DNA from: a virus
Taxonomy: Duplodnaviria; Caudoviricetes
Virus record (IMG/VR): IMGVR_UViG_3300030389_000481
Location: 1 to 53,141 of that record
Length of the DNA stretch: 53,141 nt
Strand: one strand, 5' to 3'
Position numbers and translations under genes: made by a program. The notes under the pieces were generated by a model. The model was not told the origin of the DNA. It made no database searches and saw only the letters and a program-made list of their open reading frames with translations. This document shows, piece by piece, positions 1-53,141 of this stretch (positions within the stretch are counted from its first letter, which is position 1; each line of letters opens with the position of its first letter).

Positions 1-1
1 A

Positions 2-99
2 TTGCATTGCTTATAAGAAGCAGGACTTCCTTGTTGCTCTTTAGATAAAGAGTTTATATCAAATTTATCTGTCATAGTATCCTCCTTAAGAATTTACAG
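2..99. repeat. Terminal direct overlap with 53044-53141 (circular assembly)
   Basis: 98 bp identical to the last 98 bases; base 1 (A) differs from its counterpart 53043 (G). Confidence 0.95.
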
Positions 100-271
100 A
101 TTTAGTTAAAATTTCAAGATACTTTTGCACCTTGAAGTATTCCACATCAGAAGATGTGTGAATTTGGTAGTGTTTTTTCTGAGTGTCAAATTTCTTTAAA
201 ATATTTAATGCATCTTCTATGCACGAAAACTCTAGAGTATATTTGTCATCAGGTAAATTAACATGTATCAT
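86..271 (-). CDS. First early gene, hypothetical protein (61 aa)
   Basis: ORF with AGGAG RBS at 278-282; its stop abuts the RBS of the next gene. Confidence 0.75.
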   Translation of the reverse strand: MIHVNLPDDKYTLEFSCIEDALNILKKFDTQKKHYQIHTSSDVEYFKVQKYLEILTKSVNS

Positions 272-321
272 AATTTTCTCCTATTAAAAAGGACTATTAA
301 GGGCAAACAAGTTCGTTGAAG

Positions 322-358
322 TCAAGAGTAGAGTCCATCGTAGATGGAAAACTCTTGA
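322..358 (+). other. Hairpin apex TCAAGAGT..TCCATC-GTA-GATGGA..ACTCTTGA, centre of the long inverted repeat
   Basis: 334-339 pairs with 343-348 around a GTA triloop; 322-329 pairs with 351-358. Confidence 0.85.
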
Positions 359-887
359 TATGCTTTAGCATACTTGCTTCATAAGGAGTTGGTTGCACAA
401 TAGTTTTATACTTTGACAGGAGAAAATTAAGATACATTTGAGAAAACTTATACAAATATATGAAATTTTTCGTGCATAGATTGGAGTTAAATCTTGGTCT
501 ATATTTGTAAACCAGAAAAAACACTACCAAATTTGCACTTTAAAAACTTGGAATACTTCAAGGTGCAATAGCCATAGGAGGGTGTTTGTAGATTAGCATG
601 AGGATACTATGACAGATGTTAAGAACTATAAAGTCTATGAAGTTTAGAAACAAGGAAGTCCTACTATTATATGCAACGCATTAGCAATTTTAAAAAAGCA
701 TGGTCGATTGGATGCGACATTGAAATCTTTGACATCAAATAAAAGATGTAAAACTAGGAAAACTCTACAAGTTATGAAGTTTTAAATACAAGGATAAGAT
801 TACAGATAGATGGTTTCGACTGATAAATTGCTAATGCACTTCTTCGGAGGTTTTTAAAGTGCTAGGGTAGGCAGGTGACCATACCAC
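343..887 (+). repeat. Right arm of a long patchy inverted repeat (partner: 52751-53141 plus 1-339)
   Basis: About 12 colinear blocks of 14-21 bp complementary to the first operon, e.g. 513-533/161-181, 549-568/125-144, 784-803/52873-52892. Confidence 0.95.
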
Positions 888-1101
888 CACCCATATATAT
901 CTATGCTATGCTTACACAAAATTACCAAAATCAGGTATTAACCAGTTCTTACATCTAGTTAACGCCCGGACTATATAATTCTATAAATACTTCAAAGAAA
1001 TATGCAATTAAATATGGCTAGTGGGATTGGTTGTAACCCGGTCGGGCACAAATATATTTTACAGTTCAGATTGGGTTTTGTCAATACCCTTCATCAAATA
1101 C

Positions 1102-1130
1102 TTGACAATTTTAAAATCCGACTATATACT
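1102..1130 (+). promoter_or_regulatory. Sigma70-type promoter for the late arm
   Basis: TTGACA-17 bp-TATACT; predicted start site coincides with ATG 1137. Confidence 0.75.
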
Positions 1131-2692: not shown

Positions 2693-2944
2693 ATGGATAT
2701 ACCAGTAAATTATATAAGAAGAACTTCATCGACTGTACCTTTTGGTTATAAAGAATCAGAAGATTATGTTGGTTATTTAGAACCTATTGAACATGAGTTA
2801 TCAATTCTAAAAGAAGTTGTAGAAGCTGTGTTTCATAAAGAAATTAGTTTAGGTATAGGAGTTGACTGGTTAGAAGCAGAAACAGGAAGAAAAATGTCAA
2901 GACCGGGCTTAAAAAAGATTGTAGATAAAAAGTATGGTAGATAA
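2693..2944 (+). CDS. Hypothetical protein, possible HTH DNA-binding
   Basis: VPFGY...ISL....WL...TGRKMS..GL pattern; overlaps TerL start. Confidence 0.6.
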   Translation: MDIPVNYIRRTSSTVPFGYKESEDYVGYLEPIEHELSILKEVVEAVFHKEISLGIGVDWLEAETGRKMSRPGLKKIVDKKYGR

Positions 2945-4577
2945 AGAAAAAAAAACTTCAAAATACTTGACAGATGCAAATGGCGACTATATACTAAATA
3001 AAGATGGTAGTCGTAGGAAAAAACCCGGCAGACCAAAAAATAAAGAATTATCTAATATTCAATTAGCATTAAGAGCTAAAAAACAATTAGATAAAAAGAA
3101 CAAGAAAGTTAAAAAGCTAACTAGAAGTTTAGCAAAAGTAAAAAAAGAAGTCAAACAAGAAGAAAAAGTTTTGACTTCAAATGTTTTAACAGAGTCAGAT
3201 ACTAAAGAGTTACCTGATGCAATACAAGAACATTTAGATACTACTGGGGATTATGTGGCGTTTATGCCCAATGATGGTCCTCAAACAGATTTTTTAGCTG
3301 CTTCCGAAAAGGATGTACTTTATGGAGGAGCAGCAGGTGGTGGTAAAAGTTTTGCAATGTTAATTGACCCATTGCGATATTGTCACTTACCAGAACATAG
3401 AGCTTTAATACTTAGGAGGTCTATGCCAGAACTACGAGAACTTATAGATAAGTCTCGTGAACTCTATCCAAGAGCATTTAAAGGTGCTAAGTTTAGAGAA
3501 GTAGAAAAGTTGTGGCAGTTTCCTAGTGGAGCCAAAATAGAATTTGGGTTCTTGGAACGAGATGCTGATGTTTATCGTTATCAAGGACAAGCGTACAGTT
3601 GGATAGGTTTTGATGAAATAACTCATTTACCTACAGAGTTTGGTTGGAATTACTTAGCATCACGACTAAGAACTACTAACCCAGAGATAAAAACATATCT
3701 AAGATGTACAGCTAACCCCGGTGGTGTAGGTGCACAATGGGTAAAAAAAAGATATGTTGATTCAGCAGAACCTAATACAACATTTAAAGGTTCAGATGGA
3801 TTAACAAGAAAGTTTATACCAGCGTTGTTACAGGATAATCCTTACCTCGCTGAAGATGGTGAATACGAAAGGATGTTAGAATCCTTACCAGCAGTACAGC
3901 GTAAGCAGTTGTTGGAAGGAAACTGGGATGTCGCAGAAGGTGCAGCGTTTGCTGAATTTGCTTTAGACACTCATGTTATATCTCCTTTTGAATTACCTTC
4001 TTGGTGGGAGAGGTTAAAAGGAATAGACTATGGTTACGCTGCAGAAAGTTGTTGTCTATGGGCTGCTGTAGACCCTGATGATAAGACCATCATTATATAT
4101 AGAGAATTATACAGGAAAGGTCTAACAGGGGAAGCACTCGCTGACACTATAACACAGATGGAAGAAAATGAAATTAAATCTATTCCGGGTGTTTTAGATA
4201 CTGCTGCATGGGCAAGAACTGGATATAGTGGTCCGACTATTGGTGAAACCCTAGTCAATAGAGGACATAAATTAAGAAGGGCAGATAAAAATAGAATAGC
4301 TGGTAAGACTCAAATACATGAGCATTTAAGGCAAAGAGATGGTGGCAGACCTAGATTGCAAATATTTAGTAGTTGTGTTAATCTAATTAAAGAATTACAA
4401 GGTATACCATTATCTTCTAAAAATCCGGAGGATGTAGATACACATGCTTCGGACCATGCTTATGATGCATTAAGGTATTTGTTAATGAGTAGACCAAGAA
4501 CAGACCATCCATATGATAGGATGATGCGAATAAAAACAGATTTATATCGACCTTCGGATGATGGATTTGGATACTAA
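2934..4577 (+). CDS. terL: Terminase large subunit
   Basis: Walker A GGAAGGGKS, Walker B FDE, coupling motif TANP, nuclease IDYG and DHAYDALRY. Confidence 0.95.
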   Translation: MVDKEKKTSKYLTDANGDYILNKDGSRRKKPGRPKNKELSNIQLALRAKKQLDKKNKKVKKLTRSLAKVKKEVKQEEKVLTSNVLTESDTKELPDAIQEHLDTTGDYVAFMPNDGPQTDFLAASEKDVLYGGAAGGGKSFAMLIDPLRYCHLPEHRALILRRSMPELRELIDKSRELYPRAFKGAKFREVEKLWQFPSGAKIEFGFLERDADVYRYQGQAYSWIGFDEITHLPTEFGWNYLASRLRTTNPEIKTYLRCTANPGGVGAQWVKKRYVDSAEPNTTFKGSDGLTRKFIPALLQDNPYLAEDGEYERMLESLPAVQRKQLLEGNWDVAEGAAFAEFALDTHVISPFELPSWWERLKGIDYGYAAESCCLWAAVDPDDKTIIIYRELYRKGLTGEALADTITQMEENEIKSIPGVLDTAAWARTGYSGPTIGETLVNRGHKLRRADKNRIAGKTQIHEHLRQRDGGRPRLQIFSSCVNLIKELQGIPLSSKNPEDVDTHASDHAYDALRYLLMSRPRTDHPYDRMMRIKTDLYRPSDDGFGY

Positions 4578-35542: not shown

Positions 35543-37292
35543 TATGAAATGGGCTAGTATATTATTAGGATTACTTACATTACCTCTTATCTTTAACTTC
35601 GCACCTCTTGAAGTTATGAGATTAAAAACTTTTGATGCTTTGGTGACAACACCAGAACCATCTGGATATTTTACAATTCTTAATATTACAGAAGAAGATG
35701 TACAACTTAGAGGTGGCTATCCTTTTCCTAGACAAGACTTAGCTAGTATTCATATTGATTTACTAAACGAAGGAGCAATGGGTGTAGGCTGGGTAATATT
35801 ATTTCCACAAGAAGATAGATTTGGTGGCGATAAAATATTCTCTGATGTATTAGGATATGCTCCCAGCGTATTAGCTATGCCAGAGTTTGACAATGGTATG
35901 TATCCAGAAACTCATGGTACTGTAATACTTGGACCGGATATAGAGTTACCAAAAGCAAAAGGATTTTTACAAAACATACCTGAACTAAGAAAGTCTGCTT
36001 CTCAAGGTGCTGTATCTGCTCCTGTAGATATAGATAATCTTGTAAGAAGATTACCATTATTACAACAAACTCCTGATGGTTGGGTTGCTGCTTTCGGTAC
36101 AGAAGTTTTAAAAACTTTAGCCGATGCTAATACTTATCAGATAAAAACAAATGAGAATGGTATTGAGATGATAAGAGTAAGAGGTCTTGAACCAATATCA
36201 ACAGATAGTCTTGGTCGTAAATGGATTAGTTGGGTAGACACACCACAGACTACATTAGAAGAAATGAATGTTGCAGGTAAGTTTGTATTTGTAGGTGTTA
36301 CTGCAGAGGGGGTAATGCCAACTTTAGCCACACCAAATGGGCTATTAGAGCCTCACAAGATACAGGCTGCCCTTGCAGAAAGTATTTTGATTGACTCTCC
36401 TTTCATACCTGACTATAGATTATTTGTAGAACTATTATTATTATGCGTATCAGGATTGCTCGTAGCATTCATTATAAATTACTTTGGTATAACATGGGGA
36501 TTATCATTAACAGGTATCTCGATATTATCGATGGGTGGACTCGGTTATTATTTTATATCGCTAGGTTATTTAATTGATGTAACATGGAGTATGACATGTA
36601 TGACACTTATGTCATTACAACAATTCTACTTACGCTTTAGACAACAATACAAACTAAGACAACTAATCAAAAAACAATTTGAGCATTACCTAGACCCAAG
36701 ACAAGTAAAACAATTACAAGAAAATCCTGAACTGTTAAAGTTAGGTGGTGAAAGAAAAGAATGCACCATCCTCTTTACTGATGTTAGAGGTTTCACTTCT
36801 TTATCAGAACGACTTCCACCAGAACAAGTAACAGACTTAATGAATAAAACATTAACCATACAAGCAAATGCAGTTAAGAAGTATGGAGGTATGGTTGATA
36901 AATATATTGGTGATGCAATGATGGCAATATTTAATGCACCTATAGATATTGATATGCATGAAGACAGAGCAATACTTGCAGCAATAGAAATAAAGAAAGA
37001 AATGGAAGAAGCAAACTTAGGTATTCAAATTGGTATAGGAATCAATTCGGGAATCGTGATGTTAGGTAACTGTGGTTCAGAAGATAGGTTTGATTATACT
37101 GCTATAGGTGATGCAGTTAATCTTGCAGCAAGACTTGAAAGCTCTACTAAGGAAGTAGGTGAAGATATTGTGATAGGATATAACACTATGAAGAACAGCG
37201 ACATGCAATTAAAACTACTAAAACCTATCAAAGTTAAGGGAAAAGAACATAAAGTAGCAATATACACAGTAAATCCAGCAGAATATTCGTAA
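35535..37292 (+). CDS. CHASE2-domain class III adenylate cyclase
   Basis: CHASE2 (YPFPR, D.D..VRR.PL), TM helices, FTDVRGFT, DKYIGDA, YTAIGDAVNLAARLE. Confidence 0.9.
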   Translation: MVNMKWASILLGLLTLPLIFNFAPLEVMRLKTFDALVTTPEPSGYFTILNITEEDVQLRGGYPFPRQDLASIHIDLLNEGAMGVGWVILFPQEDRFGGDKIFSDVLGYAPSVLAMPEFDNGMYPETHGTVILGPDIELPKAKGFLQNIPELRKSASQGAVSAPVDIDNLVRRLPLLQQTPDGWVAAFGTEVLKTLADANTYQIKTNENGIEMIRVRGLEPISTDSLGRKWISWVDTPQTTLEEMNVAGKFVFVGVTAEGVMPTLATPNGLLEPHKIQAALAESILIDSPFIPDYRLFVELLLLCVSGLLVAFIINYFGITWGLSLTGISILSMGGLGYYFISLGYLIDVTWSMTCMTLMSLQQFYLRFRQQYKLRQLIKKQFEHYLDPRQVKQLQENPELLKLGGERKECTILFTDVRGFTSLSERLPPEQVTDLMNKTLTIQANAVKKYGGMVDKYIGDAMMAIFNAPIDIDMHEDRAILAAIEIKKEMEEANLGIQIGIGINSGIVMLGNCGSEDRFDYTAIGDAVNLAARLESSTKEVGEDIVIGYNTMKNSDMQLKLLKPIKVKGKEHKVAIYTVNPAEYS

Positions 37293-37294
37293 AT

Positions 37295-37395
37295 CCTCTC
37301 AGAGGCACGGAGAAGGCGTGTAAGCAATTTTATGTGGTTTTGGACTTATGGTATTACTTACAGCCTTTCCGTTGAATACAGAGCATTCTGTGAGG
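37295..37395. terminator. Long imperfect hairpin at the convergence of the two arms
   Basis: CCTCTCAGA/TCTGTGAGG and ACGGA-GAAGGC-TGTAAG/CTTACA-GCCTT-TCCGT. Confidence 0.55.
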
Positions 37396-37403
37396 TCAAT
37401 TTT

Positions 37404-37631
37404 TTAATTTTCCCCCATTTTTCTAGCATTTAGGTGAGATTCTATTTTATTGTGTATATTATCTAATTCTGCCTTACCTTCTCGCACAATAGTCTTTAAT
37501 ATTTCGTATTCTTCTTGTTTCAAAAACTTTTTTAAGTGTTTAATATCTGTTGTTATTCTTTCAGTTATTAATTGTCCTGCCCTATTGTATAGAAATCTGT
37601 AACCAAGAAGTGTTGCTTCCTCTCTTTTCAT
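37404..37631 (-). CDS. Hypothetical protein
   Basis: 75-aa ORF after nrdB. Confidence 0.6.
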   Translation of the reverse strand: MKREEATLLGYRFLYNRAGQLITERITTDIKHLKKFLKQEEYEILKTIVREGKAELDNIHNKIESHLNARKMGEN

Positions 37632-37633
37632 AA

Positions 37634-38611
37634 TTATCCTTCATTAAAGTTTGTAAATGTTATCTTGTCTTGTGCACCTCGAAGTCCTGCTTTCATATAA
37701 GTAGTAGCACGACCTTCAAAAAAGTTCTGATGTTCTACTCCCATGACTTCATCTATCCAACCAAGAGGATTTTCTTTCTGGTCATAATTAGTTTTAAGAC
37801 CAAGCTGTAATAATCTTCTATCAGCTATGTATCTATTGTAAGCATACATATCTTTTTTAGTTAAACCTTTTAAGTCTCCCATTTCAAACACTAAGTCTAA
37901 GAACTTATCTTCTAATGTAACCATCTCTCTGCATATCTCATATATTTCTTTTTTGAAATCATCTGTCCATATGTCTATGTTTTCTTTTATAAACTCTCTG
38001 AATAGTTTTGTCATTGCTTCTACATGCATTGATTCATCACGAATAGAATATGTAACTATCTGACCCATACCTTTCATCTTTCCAAATCTAGGAAAGTTTA
38101 ACAAAATTGCAAAGCTACTAAATAATTGTAGTCCTTCTGTAAAAGCAGAGTAAACTGCTAGGGTTTTAGCTATAGTTCTTTTATCAGACTTTGTAGGTTT
38201 AAAGTTAGAAACATAATCATGCTTGTCTGCCATCTCCTCATACTTTGCAAAAGCTTTATATTCTATATCTGGCATACCAACAGTATCAAGTAGCAAACTG
38301 TATGCATGTTGATGTATTGATTCCATGTTAGCAAAAGAAGACATCATCATTCTTGCTTCTGGTTTTGTAAATGTACGCATATACTTATCAATGTACCCAC
38401 TAGCTACATCTACATCTGACTGAGTAAATAATCTAAATATTTGTGTAAGTAGATTTTTTTCTACATCAGTTAAATCTTGCCAGTCTTTTACATCTGTATG
38501 TAAAGCTACTGACTCTGGCATCCAATGCATTTGATTCTGTAATACATAGTAATCAAACATCCATGGATACTCAAAAGGTTTGTAGTAATCTCTATTGCCC
38601 AGTAAACTCAT
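37634..38611 (-). CDS. nrdB: Ribonucleotide reductase class I beta subunit
   Basis: ESIHQHAYS, EGLQLFSSF, RDESMH, NFFE. Confidence 0.95.
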   Translation of the reverse strand: MSLLGNRDYYKPFEYPWMFDYYVLQNQMHWMPESVALHTDVKDWQDLTDVEKNLLTQIFRLFTQSDVDVASGYIDKYMRTFTKPEARMMMSSFANMESIHQHAYSLLLDTVGMPDIEYKAFAKYEEMADKHDYVSNFKPTKSDKRTIAKTLAVYSAFTEGLQLFSSFAILLNFPRFGKMKGMGQIVTYSIRDESMHVEAMTKLFREFIKENIDIWTDDFKKEIYEICREMVTLEDKFLDLVFEMGDLKGLTKKDMYAYNRYIADRRLLQLGLKTNYDQKENPLGWIDEVMGVEHQNFFEGRATTYMKAGLRGAQDKITFTNFNEG

Positions 38612-52045: not shown

Positions 52046-52074
52046 AGTATGGCGTGAATTGCCGACCATGTCAA
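52046..52074 (-). promoter_or_regulatory. Early sigma70 promoter
   Basis: TTGACA-17 bp-CATACT. Confidence 0.7.
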
Positions 52075-52093
52075 GCGACTAATCCTTTAAGTA

Positions 52094-52300: not shown

Positions 52301-52529
52301 AAGTCCTCCTAAATACATTGATGTTCCATACTTCACCCTTGTCTATAGATACAAAGTTTTGATAGTCAAAATCATTCTTCAAATGTATCCATAGATTTTT
52401 ATTCCTGTGCTTCCACAATTCAGACTTGTCCTCTTTGAAAGAGTGTCTTGATTGAAAAGAGAAACCCAGTTCCCTCAAATAATCTCTTGCTAAAAGATAA
52501 TTATTAAACTTTCTTTTCTTAATAAACAT
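52287..52529 (-). CDS. Hypothetical early protein
   Basis: AAGGAG RBS before MFIKK. Confidence 0.6.
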   Translation of the reverse strand: MFIKKRKFNNYLLARDYLRELGFSFQSRHSFKEDKSELWKHRNKNLWIHLKNDFDYQNFVSIDKGEVWNINVFRRTYDTR

Positions 52530-52629
52530 ATAAACTCCTTGTCGGTTGATGTCTGCGACCACCTTACCACCCATGTCAACTGACTAATACTTTAAGTTTG
52601 TTAAGTTTTAAAGTTGTTTTAAAGTTCTG

Positions 52630-52750
52630 CCCTCTATAATTATGCCAAGTCTTAAAAACAAATCGCCCTCAATTACTCTGCCGACACTCCCTCTATTACT
52701 CTGCCCTGCCCACTAAACCTTAAATCTAAATCTAAACTTAAATTTAAATT
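52630..52750. repeat. Three 17-bp direct repeats plus a TAAAYY hexamer array
   Basis: Near-identical CCCTC..TGCC 17-mers at 52630, 52666 and 52689; about 6 hexamers at 52714-52750. Confidence 0.75.
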
Positions 52751-52808
52751 GTGGTTTGGACACCTGCCAATATAAAAAGTCTTCCATCCTTATTCAAAAC
52801 CCTAGCAG

Positions 52809-52835
52809 AAAAAAAAGCACCTCCGAAGAAGTGCT
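52809..52835 (-). terminator. Rho-independent terminator of the first operon
   Basis: AGCACTTC-TTCG-GAGGTGCT followed by a T-run. Confidence 0.85.
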
Positions 52836-52844
52836 TTAAAAGGA

Positions 52845-53117
52845 TTAGCAGTCGTGTTCTGCTAAATATTTAGTAATCTTATCCTTGTATTTTTTAGGTA
52901 AAGATTTCTTTGAAAATAAATCAGATGCTTGTTTGCAAGTTAGTTTTCCTTGTTTTACATCTGAATAAAGGCAACCAAAGATTTGCCCTTTTAATTTCCA
53001 ATCGACCATGCTACCTTTTTTCGCAAAGCGTATTGCTAATGCGTTGCATTGCTTATAAGAAGCAGGACTTCCTTGTTGCTCTTTAGATAAAGAGTTTATA
53101 TCAAATTTATCTGTCAT
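52845..53117 (-). CDS. Second early gene, basic hypothetical protein (90 aa)
   Basis: AGGAGG RBS; continues from gene 86-271 across the circular junction. Confidence 0.75.
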   Translation of the reverse strand: MTDKFDINSLSKEQQGSPASYKQCNALAIRFAKKGSMVDWKLKGQIFGCLYSDVKQGKLTCKQASDLFSKKSLPKKYKDKITKYLAEHDC

Positions 53118-53141
53118 AGTATCCTCCTTAAGAATTTACAG

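Follow-up and report, generated by a model that had tools for sequence, protein, structure and literature searches.

The element described here is found in IMGVR_UViG_3300030389_000481, a complete IMG/VR virus record (CheckV completeness 100) of 53,141 nucleotides (nt), the whole of which was analysed and is called the window below. The window is a complete uncultured HMO-2011-type marine phage. Positions 2–99 are a repeat of 53044–53141, and the sequence thus forms one circular or terminally redundant unit of 53042 bases. A + strand module contains terS (1137–1565, assigned from PHROG and Pfam matches) and terL (2934–4577) and continues onward to ~37.3 kb. A minus-strand module runs from position 271 leftward over the junction of the record ends down to 37.6 kb and encodes a T7-like primase-helicase, a family A DNA polymerase and ribonucleotide reductase. 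The stretch at 343–887 is the non-coding arm of a 1.2-kb imperfect palindrome, and the partner, coding arm crosses the junction (52751..53042, then 1..282). The closest cultured phages are the Pelagibacter phages HTVC115P, HTVC103P and HTVC104P (68–70% amino acid (aa) identity in terL, 56–58% in terS), with other HMO-2011-type phages as more distant kin. Phages of this type are given as among the most abundant surface-ocean viruses in the abstract of PMC9038755.

The coding arm carries two small minus-strand genes. The leftward module begins with gene A (86..271, 61 aa), which occupies the inner half of the arm. Gene B (52845..53117), predicted to encode a 90 aa helical protein, occupies the outer half, and its first 25 codons are also present at window positions 1–75 through the end overlap. 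A gene A homologue with 81% identity is found in the relative L008, and translations read by eye, not by search, show similar-sized small proteins with a common ...ETxEF... stretch at the gene A place in other relatives. Gene B homologues (32–87% identity) are present in most relatives that have the fold-back. Neither gene shows a Pfam or PHROG family match. An AlphaFold model of gene B (predicted local distance difference test score, pLDDT, 80.9) has no PDB relative at E ≤ 0.001, and the ESM Atlas yielded no usable match for this protein. Thus the gene functions offer no clue to the element. The A-B unit is predicted to end in a strong intrinsic terminator at 52814..52837 (minus strand), whose 10-bp stem is closed by a TTCG loop and followed by a T run; promoters and terminators are pattern matches throughout. 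On the minus strand, a weak promoter-like site at 325..295 (TTGACT 325..320, a 19-nt spacer, TTAATA 300..295) that could serve the operon was read by eye, is absent from the promoter-scan list and is only partly paired in the stem. The outermost left arm, 52751..52807 on the minus strand, lies past the terminator and carries the blocks 52799–52807 and 52751–52768.

The right arm (418..887, + strand) is a degenerate, sense-like inverted copy of gene A, gene B, the terminator and ~60 nt beyond, and consists of 15 near-perfect blocks of 9–21 nt with indel-rich spacers between them. The stretch 343–417 joins it to the centre of the palindrome, an apical region of ~135 nt (283..417) with an axis at ~341–348 and a small local hairpin. 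No + strand open reading frame of at least 35 aa is found in the right arm, and the copy contains stops. A scan of 1–1400 against Rfam gave a sole match at the level of chance (1077–1136, E = 0.58). The preliminary description of this DNA had listed 15 inverted block pairs and had read the region as a block-wise inverted copy of the whole first early operon. All 15 pairs are present where it placed them, 12 exact and three with 1–2 mismatches, and 239 of 243 positions are complementary. The block check, the arm alignment, the open reading frames and the terminator together bear out that the first leftward transcription unit is copied in full, as non-coding DNA, with ~60 nt in addition, and the statement that no block exceeds about 21 bp is true in the window. 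The term early operon follows from position only.

The chain of blocks is far outside what shuffled sequences give. Exact inverted blocks of at least 10 nt form a collinear chain with a score of 173 nt (11 blocks), and the maximum in 20 shuffles is 18. The second-best inverted chain in the entire genome scores 20, with three whole-genome shuffles at 20–22. When folded as RNA, the segment 52745..900 shows a single giant hairpin from either strand; the + strand reaches −448 kcal/mol (z = −27.5) and the minus strand −426 kcal/mol (z = −26.9), and the innermost long-range pairs in the fold are 298/399 and 285/415. A global alignment of the arms shows perfect blocks split by spacers that differ chiefly by indels, which are numerous enough to make the arm alignments uncertain outside the blocks. 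The non-coding arm is ~100 nt shorter than the coding arm.

The fold-back is also found in independent assemblies. Dozens of independent IMG/VR contigs show this architecture. Most of the stretch is also present in runs from four or more studies other than the possible source. Contigs of run X3 span 1–1068 with one differing letter and contigs of run X4 span 219–1150 with three differing letters and one gap, and both runs belong to studies other than the possible source. These contigs bridge the fold-back, which is therefore real DNA in nature, and the chimeric assembly considered in the preliminary description is not what they display. An assembly or amplification artefact, e.g. an inverted chimera, has in its favour the general risk attached to metagenome assemblies and nothing further. 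It is excluded by the bridging contigs of the two other studies and by the relatives, since 37 of 48 relatives from many samples each carry their own version; a perfect copy would also be expected of an artefact but a patchy one is seen. Its probability is negligible. A DNA search of 1–1200 against 50,697 phage records gave no match. Among assembled RNA libraries, X18 covers 1157–1300 only and X19 covers 1–145 only, and the contigs carry no strand.

The two copies of the end overlap disagree at the first base, with A at position 1 and G at 53043. This base pairs with position 677 of the right arm, which is itself polymorphic among samples (C>A in X3, C>T in X4). The differences at 677 and at 1/53043 may represent population-level co-variation, the left-arm base of X4 being outside contig coverage.

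A search for relatives by terS gave 219, of which 80 loci at 78–100% identity were taken; the relatives are not phylogenetically independent and all counts are across loci. An inverted block chain of at least 40 is found in 46 of the 70 relatives that have at least 800 nt upstream of terS, where the maximum with five shuffles per locus is 23. By gapped local inverted alignment, 37 of 48 non-redundant loci score 111–404, and shuffles reach 67 at most. In most fold-back loci the B homologues are only 32–54% identical and a few loci carry other genes, and each locus mirrors its own genes. The length of the non-coding arm is 470–630 nt and the arms are ~65–72% identical. The longest exact block among 35 non-redundant relatives is 23 bp, with none longer in any locus. 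HMO-2011 has a different gene order at terS. The contig ends of the 80 loci show no pile-up near the element in a table that was read by eye, not computed.

The terminator participates in the mirror in a particular way. In the window, its apical 16 nt are mirrored at 836–851 and the T run is lost in the mirror. In 17 of 20 loci with a strong terminator the apical part is mirrored by at least 13 nt, and the T run is altered in all 10 mirror copies printed. The mirrored pieces are the self-complementary apical parts of terminators, which weakens the idea of an anti-terminator.

Searches with A and B gave one close relative, IMGVR_UViG_3300037991_001476. Its flanks are 98–100% identical to the window and both palindrome arms have diverged, yet it displays perfect inverted blocks of its own with the same changes on both arms, e.g. 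GTAATCTTATCC in the window and GTAATCGCATCC in the relative. The palindrome from ~835 leftward to ~52880 is a divergence hot spot, where both arms are 15–30% different from those of L007, and recombination may swap the cassette as a whole. L007 in addition carries ~215 extra bases (3975–4190) relative to the window at 52310/52311, with the AGGAGGACTTATG ribosome-site/start module at either end, an arrangement that looks like gain or loss of small early genes through recombination between such modules.

The palindrome is an inverted repeat under concerted evolution, with lineage-specific changes that are common to both arms. In close relatives with common spacers, blocks carry the same substitutions on both arms, e.g. 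ACGAGACTTTAGAATT and ACGAGACAATAGAATT. Four-way alignments were used to count compensated and crossed changes wherever two phages have different bases in their coding arms. The comparison of the window with L008 gives 20 compensated and 0 crossed, and other comparisons give 63 and 1, 76 and 2, 72 and 2, and 89 and 4. Run on eight loci, RNAalifold predicts the long-range helices, and 34 of 254 pairs have changed on both sides. The preliminary description had held that neutral decay would not leave such blocks and had called for a comparison of relatives for co-evolving blocks. The many compensated double changes and nearly absent crossed ones agree with arms that are actively kept complementary, and the non-coding arm of each phage matches its own genes. 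Spacers behave differently from blocks. In 180 spacer pairs the left spacer is longer than the right in 74%, the lengths are equal in 4.4% and the length difference is a multiple of 3 in 30%.

Block positions are only partly common to distant lineages and are not conserved between them, and two sister groups have coding arms that are ~90% identical and very different non-coding arms. Shifting positions and the sister-group arms together suggest turnover of blocks and whole or partial re-copying of the arm. The non-coding arm changes at about the rate of third codon positions (11–21% and 9–29%, respectively), which is faster than simple purifying selection on pairing predicts.

Concerted evolution raises the explanation that the arm has no function. 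In the leader of P1, a near-consensus sigma-70-type promoter that is directed leftward into the right arm and operon (TTGACA-17-TAAAAT, 1056..1084, minus strand, consensus match only), an old inverted pseudo-copy would be refreshed by gene conversion or template switching, and selection would only limit harm by breaking long perfect runs and pairing between leader and mRNA. The about neutral rate of the non-coding arm, the turnover of block positions and the sister groups, which suggest that an entire arm was copied anew, all agree with this explanation, as does the tendency for the non-coding spacer to be the shorter one. On the other hand, a harmful arm of 470–630 nt should be deleted from streamlined, capsid-limited genomes and instead persists in 37 of 48 lineages with B at 32–54% identity, and conversion should homogenise spacers, of which so few pairs are equal in length. 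Pairing at ribosome-binding sites (RBS) and start codons is not preferentially destroyed either, since the identity there is 0.78–0.80 compared with 0.71–0.75 overall. Such non-adaptive copying is rather unlikely, and the mismatches described next bear on it as well.

Two designs of the arms are found among the loci. Block-type loci, which include the window, display perfect runs of 10–23 nt and 40–77 gap openings. Point-mismatch loci are rich in single mismatches, seldom have long exact runs and mostly show 30–60 gap openings. Changes are written from the sense sequence of the operon to the + strand of the non-coding arm, such that A>G and C>T give a wobble pair on the + strand. In 11 point-mismatch loci there are 245 A>G and 190 C>T changes, a total of 435, versus 32 G>A and 27 T>C, a total of 59; among transversions, A>T (136) and C>G (82) are the most frequent. 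When the count is limited to mismatches with three matches on either side, 10–11 point-mismatch relatives give 55 versus 7 (p = 4e-7 against a composition expectation of 0.59). Across loci, the + type exceeds the minus type in 33 of 38. The favoured changes produce G.U (or G.T), U.U and G.G on the + strand and A.C, A.A and C.C on the minus strand. The mismatches show no codon periodicity (0.157/0.187/0.180) and the changes are for this reason assigned to the non-coding arm. They raise G from 16–20% to 20–23%, and third codon positions are 75–88% A+T; because G is added against the AT pressure, a simple mutational bias is no explanation.

The wobbles add long helices on the + strand. When + strand wobbles are counted, point-mismatch loci show 5–9 helices of at least 15 bp, the longest of 20–37, compared with 0–3 such helices for Watson-Crick pairs only and 0–4 when minus-strand wobbles are counted. 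The window has 6 helices of at least 15 bp, comparable with the wobble-counted point-mismatch loci. Isolated mismatches in block-type loci are mainly transversions (36 of 49). A set composed mostly of block-type loci says nothing on the strand, with 5 versus 7 at block flanks and 42 versus 71 isolated mismatches, the latter confounded by composition.

The strand pattern also touches the non-adaptive explanation. The universal, near-consensus P1 reads into the arm, so that a minus-strand RNA with both arms is expected, and the favoured mismatches A.C, A.A and C.C are those that break pairing in this RNA; the block-type transversions break pairing on both strands. Against this, block-type genomes such as the window keep a minus-strand fold of −426 kcal/mol.

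The same transcript gives rise to a further explanation, close to the suggestion in the preliminary description that a minus-strand RNA from this region is an antisense silencer of the operon. The ~700-nt P1 leader would pair with the downstream A-B message, mask its ribosome-binding sites and recruit RNase III or compete with the terminator, with the result that A and B would be expressed only from the proximal promoter or briefly. A TTGACA-17-TAnnnT site is present 49–91 nt from terS in 56 of 56 non-redundant loci listed, so P1 is universal, and a pattern scan shows no intrinsic terminator between P1 and gene A. The ribosome-binding site and start lie within block 418–437 for A and block 600–617 for B, and the 5′ arm and loop of the terminator find their complement in block 836–851. 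The minus strand folds with z = −26.9, and the first codons of B are covered by blocks at 40–50% compared with a mean of 29%. However, the mismatches of the 11 relatives destroy minus-strand pairing (435 v 59, and 55 v 7 with matched flanks) and leave 0–4 helices of at least 15 bp. The outermost blocks lie beyond the operon terminator and would pair only after read-through, the mirrored terminator pieces are hairpins that would fold locally first, and the enrichment over ribosome-binding sites is weak. Antisense silencing is thus disfavoured in the point-mismatch relatives; in the lineage of the window, isolated transitions at 5 versus 8 allow no strand call. Overall, silencing by this leader is unlikely, somewhat more so than non-adaptive copying.

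The outer ends of the palindrome carry a sequence of their own. The 18-mer GGCAGGTGTCCAAACCAC is found only at the left outer end and, inverted, at 870–887, i.e. two matches in the genome versus 0.05 expected. As a boundary motif, GGCAGGTGTCCAAACCAC is present in the leader of 31 of 58 non-redundant loci and has an inverted partner in only 11 of 58. The stretch 52630–52750, which adjoins the left end of the palindrome on its outer side, carries three 17-nt direct repeats CCCTCnATnAnTnTGCC (at 52630, 52666 and 52689) followed by an AT-rich AAATCT/AAATTT tract, an arrangement kept in the close relative. These look like iterons with an unwinding element, or like operator sites.

A function of the element as double-stranded DNA (dsDNA) may be considered in this context, either as a cruciform or protein-bound structure in replication start, packaging or concatemer processing, or as a segment invertible at the inverted 18-mers. 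The element adjoins both terS and the iteron-like repeats with the AT-rich tract, the 18-mer is unique to the two outer ends, where it is inverted, and the cassette is a divergence hot spot between phages that are otherwise 98–100% identical. A cruciform or duplex site would have no strand preference, yet the bias in the relatives is 7-fold. A 1.2-kb palindrome with so many unequal loops should extrude poorly. No serine or tyrosine recombinase or protelomerase domain is found in this genome, rated 100% complete, and the inverted partner of the 18-mer is limited to the 11 loci mentioned. A duplex function is very unlikely.

The explanation that is tentatively favoured, with a probability somewhat short of even, is that selection keeps the + strand able to fold back on itself and at the same time limits exact DNA identity. 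It is suggested because both designs keep + strand pairing while exact identity stays short. The palindrome would have been born as an inverted duplicate of the first leftward unit, comprising the weak promoter, A, B, the terminator and ~60 nt, and its arms would then have been held complementary by concerted evolution across a clade of uncultured HMO-2011-type marine phages. One strand, the +, would have to fold back, so that, between the promoter region and a point just beyond the terminator, the A/B template in the + strand would be paired with the degenerate sense-like arm. Exact identity would be held below ~23 bp, probably against arm-arm recombination or cleavage of a perfect palindrome. 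The design in the window may meet this with 15 perfect helices split by unequal loops, and that in sister lineages with G.U (or G.T) wobbles and isolated mismatches. Selection on the folded + strand, as the cause of what is seen in the arms, carries the same tentative weight.

Two molecules are candidates for the folding. The first is a + strand transcript. A pattern scan of the convergent module junction (37292–37634) shows no intrinsic terminator on either strand, and nothing is thus predicted at 37.3–37.6 kb to stop late + strand read-through. The second is + strand single-stranded DNA (ssDNA), on which host polymerase could work as it does at plasmid ssDNA promoters and so transcribe A and B. 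The preliminary description had proposed a folded-back virion DNA end whose non-coding arm acts as a surrogate non-template strand. The polarity is the right one for this and the extent of the arms corresponds to one transcription unit, with the arms stopping just past the operon terminator. In such a model the + strand would be transiently single-stranded, at an entering, resected or incompletely replicated end, and would snap back for host RNA polymerase to transcribe A and B; this specific sequence of events is doubtful, and only slightly more probable than a duplex function.

Several observations weigh against selection for a folded + strand. Selection against pairing within the minus-strand P1 transcript would explain the strand bias equally well, this reading being the mirror image of the first. 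The block-type lineage of the window itself shows no strand bias, with 95 versus 58 overall in addition to the isolated transitions given above. The region left of the left arm has no predicted + strand promoter of sigma-70-like type. By gapped alignment, 11 of the 48 non-redundant relatives lack the fold-back, and the two isolates tested, HTVC115P and HTVC103P, show no convincing one: HTVC115P has a chain of 41 vs 31 and a Smith-Waterman (SW) score of 82 vs a shuffle maximum of 79, and HTVC103P has an SW score of 88 vs 77. The shifting block positions and the fast rate of the non-coding arm count on the same side.

Other features accompany the element near terS. P(+), a near-consensus promoter (TTGACA-17-TATACT, 1102..1130, + strand, consensus match only), and P1 are situated back to back just upstream of terS, and both are present in 56 of 56 non-redundant loci listed. 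The −10 of P(+) ends 6 nt before the terS ATG (1137) in the window and 6–7 nt before it in the 56 loci, a distance so short that the terS message may be leaderless. Between P1 and the right arm is a conserved 5′ leader (888..1048, minus strand, recognised from relatives) of ~160 nt, with a family consensus conserved in 56 sequences; window positions 836–1000 are 100% identical to L007/L008. The leader contains a hairpin-like palindrome ATTAACCAG...CTAGTTAAC at ~937–964 that is at least 90% conserved in the 56-sequence alignment and could be a protein site (packaging or regulator) or an RNA hairpin. Further leftward, a 34-nt direct repeat with 82% identity at 52059–52092 and 52564–52597 places a minus-strand TTGACA before the next two leftward gene groups, and may be a shared early-promoter module. 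Genes A, B and their homologues have C ≥ G on the coding strand (GC skew −0.10 to +0.09), and other genes have G > C (+0.17 to +0.28). From the skew of the mirrored genes, the + strand is enriched in G on both arms.

In a tightly packed genome, this clade devotes ~1% to a non-coding mirror of the first two genes, and the match to those genes has survived deep divergence. The consequence is one of two things, each of which would be new: a folded single strand put to an undescribed use as infection or replication begins, or concerted evolution of unusual strength and precision for a phage. If a single-stranded fold-back were transcribed as outlined above, it would constitute an operon-length ssDNA transcription unit in a tailed dsDNA phage, with the degenerate arm as surrogate non-template strand, and the first, possibly anti-defence, genes would be expressed before or without duplex DNA. 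The strand-specific wobbles, the 23-bp limit on exact identity and the two arm designs give concrete predictions, and an inverted collinear chain between a leader and its adjoining genes is a simple screen for other phage groups.

No equivalent element is described in the literature searched, which includes passages of PMC9038755 and PMC12753301 in their main text. Each of the nearest analogues appears to match one feature of the element and to differ in scale, in the gene content of the arm or in the strand signal.

Several classes were considered and rejected. A diversity-generating retroelement also has a non-coding near-copy of part of a gene close by. Here there is no reverse transcriptase (PF00078, 0 matches in this genome, rated 100% complete), only 132 of 949 mismatches are at adenines of the non-coding copy, and the copy is inverted, indel-rich and covers whole genes. 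An invertible segment of the Hin/Gin/Cin or tyrosine-recombinase switch type is not indicated, as PF00239 and PF00589 have 0 matches each. For a hairpin-telomere phage of the N15 type, PF16684 likewise has 0 matches and the palindrome is imperfect with a central region of ~135 nt. A silent-cassette donor does not agree with a copy that carries stops and has spacer differences in multiples of 3 in only 30% of 180.

Regulatory RNAs offer a different likeness. In the fold-back inhibition of IS10 transposase and in the c4 RNA of P1/P7 and CI RNA of P4, an upstream read-through segment is likewise complementary to a ribosome-binding site. These display one or two short patches, whereas here there are 10–17 collinear patches over two genes and a terminator, and the mismatch spectrum in the relatives disfavours a minus-strand RNA. 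Membership among cis-antisense leaders is disfavoured since minus-strand pairing is not kept across the point-mismatch relatives, where the minus-strand mismatches are mostly A.C and helices of at least 15 bp number 0–4 with minus-strand wobbles as opposed to 5–9 with + strand wobbles.

The concerted evolution of inverted arms has parallels elsewhere. In the palindromes of the human Y chromosome and in the inverted repeats of plastids, which gene conversion between the arms keeps alike, arms evolve in concert and differences appear on both arms. The long inverted repeats of C. elegans (PMC1803023) belong in the same group. The arms of converted palindromes are near-identical and usually both functional; here, by contrast, one arm is non-coding, the identity is ~65–72%, no exact run exceeds 23 bp and the wobble pattern is strand-specific. 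Template-switch correction of quasipalindromes could explain the copying of in-block mismatches from arm to arm with loops left different. Described quasipalindromes are short hairpins with short loops, unlike arms up to 1.1 kb apart, and the correction is a mutational mechanism that supplies no function.

In the hairpin model of the T7 concatemer junction, a phage with a T7-like replisome likewise has an imperfect palindrome near its packaging genes, where a displaced strand is proposed to fold back and prime synthesis. The T7 palindrome is tens of bp in length with no copy of a gene. Frpo/ssi ssDNA promoters, which lie in the leading regions of conjugative plasmids, form a mismatched duplex by imperfect intrastrand fold-back, as do the RNA-polymerase-primed minus origins of filamentous phages. 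The Frpo/ssi fold-back lets host polymerase act on entering ssDNA ahead of the first expressed genes. In a stem test for this class, divergent 10/12 sites are paired near the centre in some relatives (L009, L011, L014) and not in most. The inferred polarity of the present element would similarly place the template strand of the operon in the fold-back. Frpo/ssi elements are a few hundred nt in length, contain the promoter or primer site only and belong to DNA that is known to enter single-stranded. The fold-back reported here, known from its sequence, instead comprises a whole two-gene unit, is 1.2 kb long and belongs to a tailed dsDNA phage whose replisome is T7-like.

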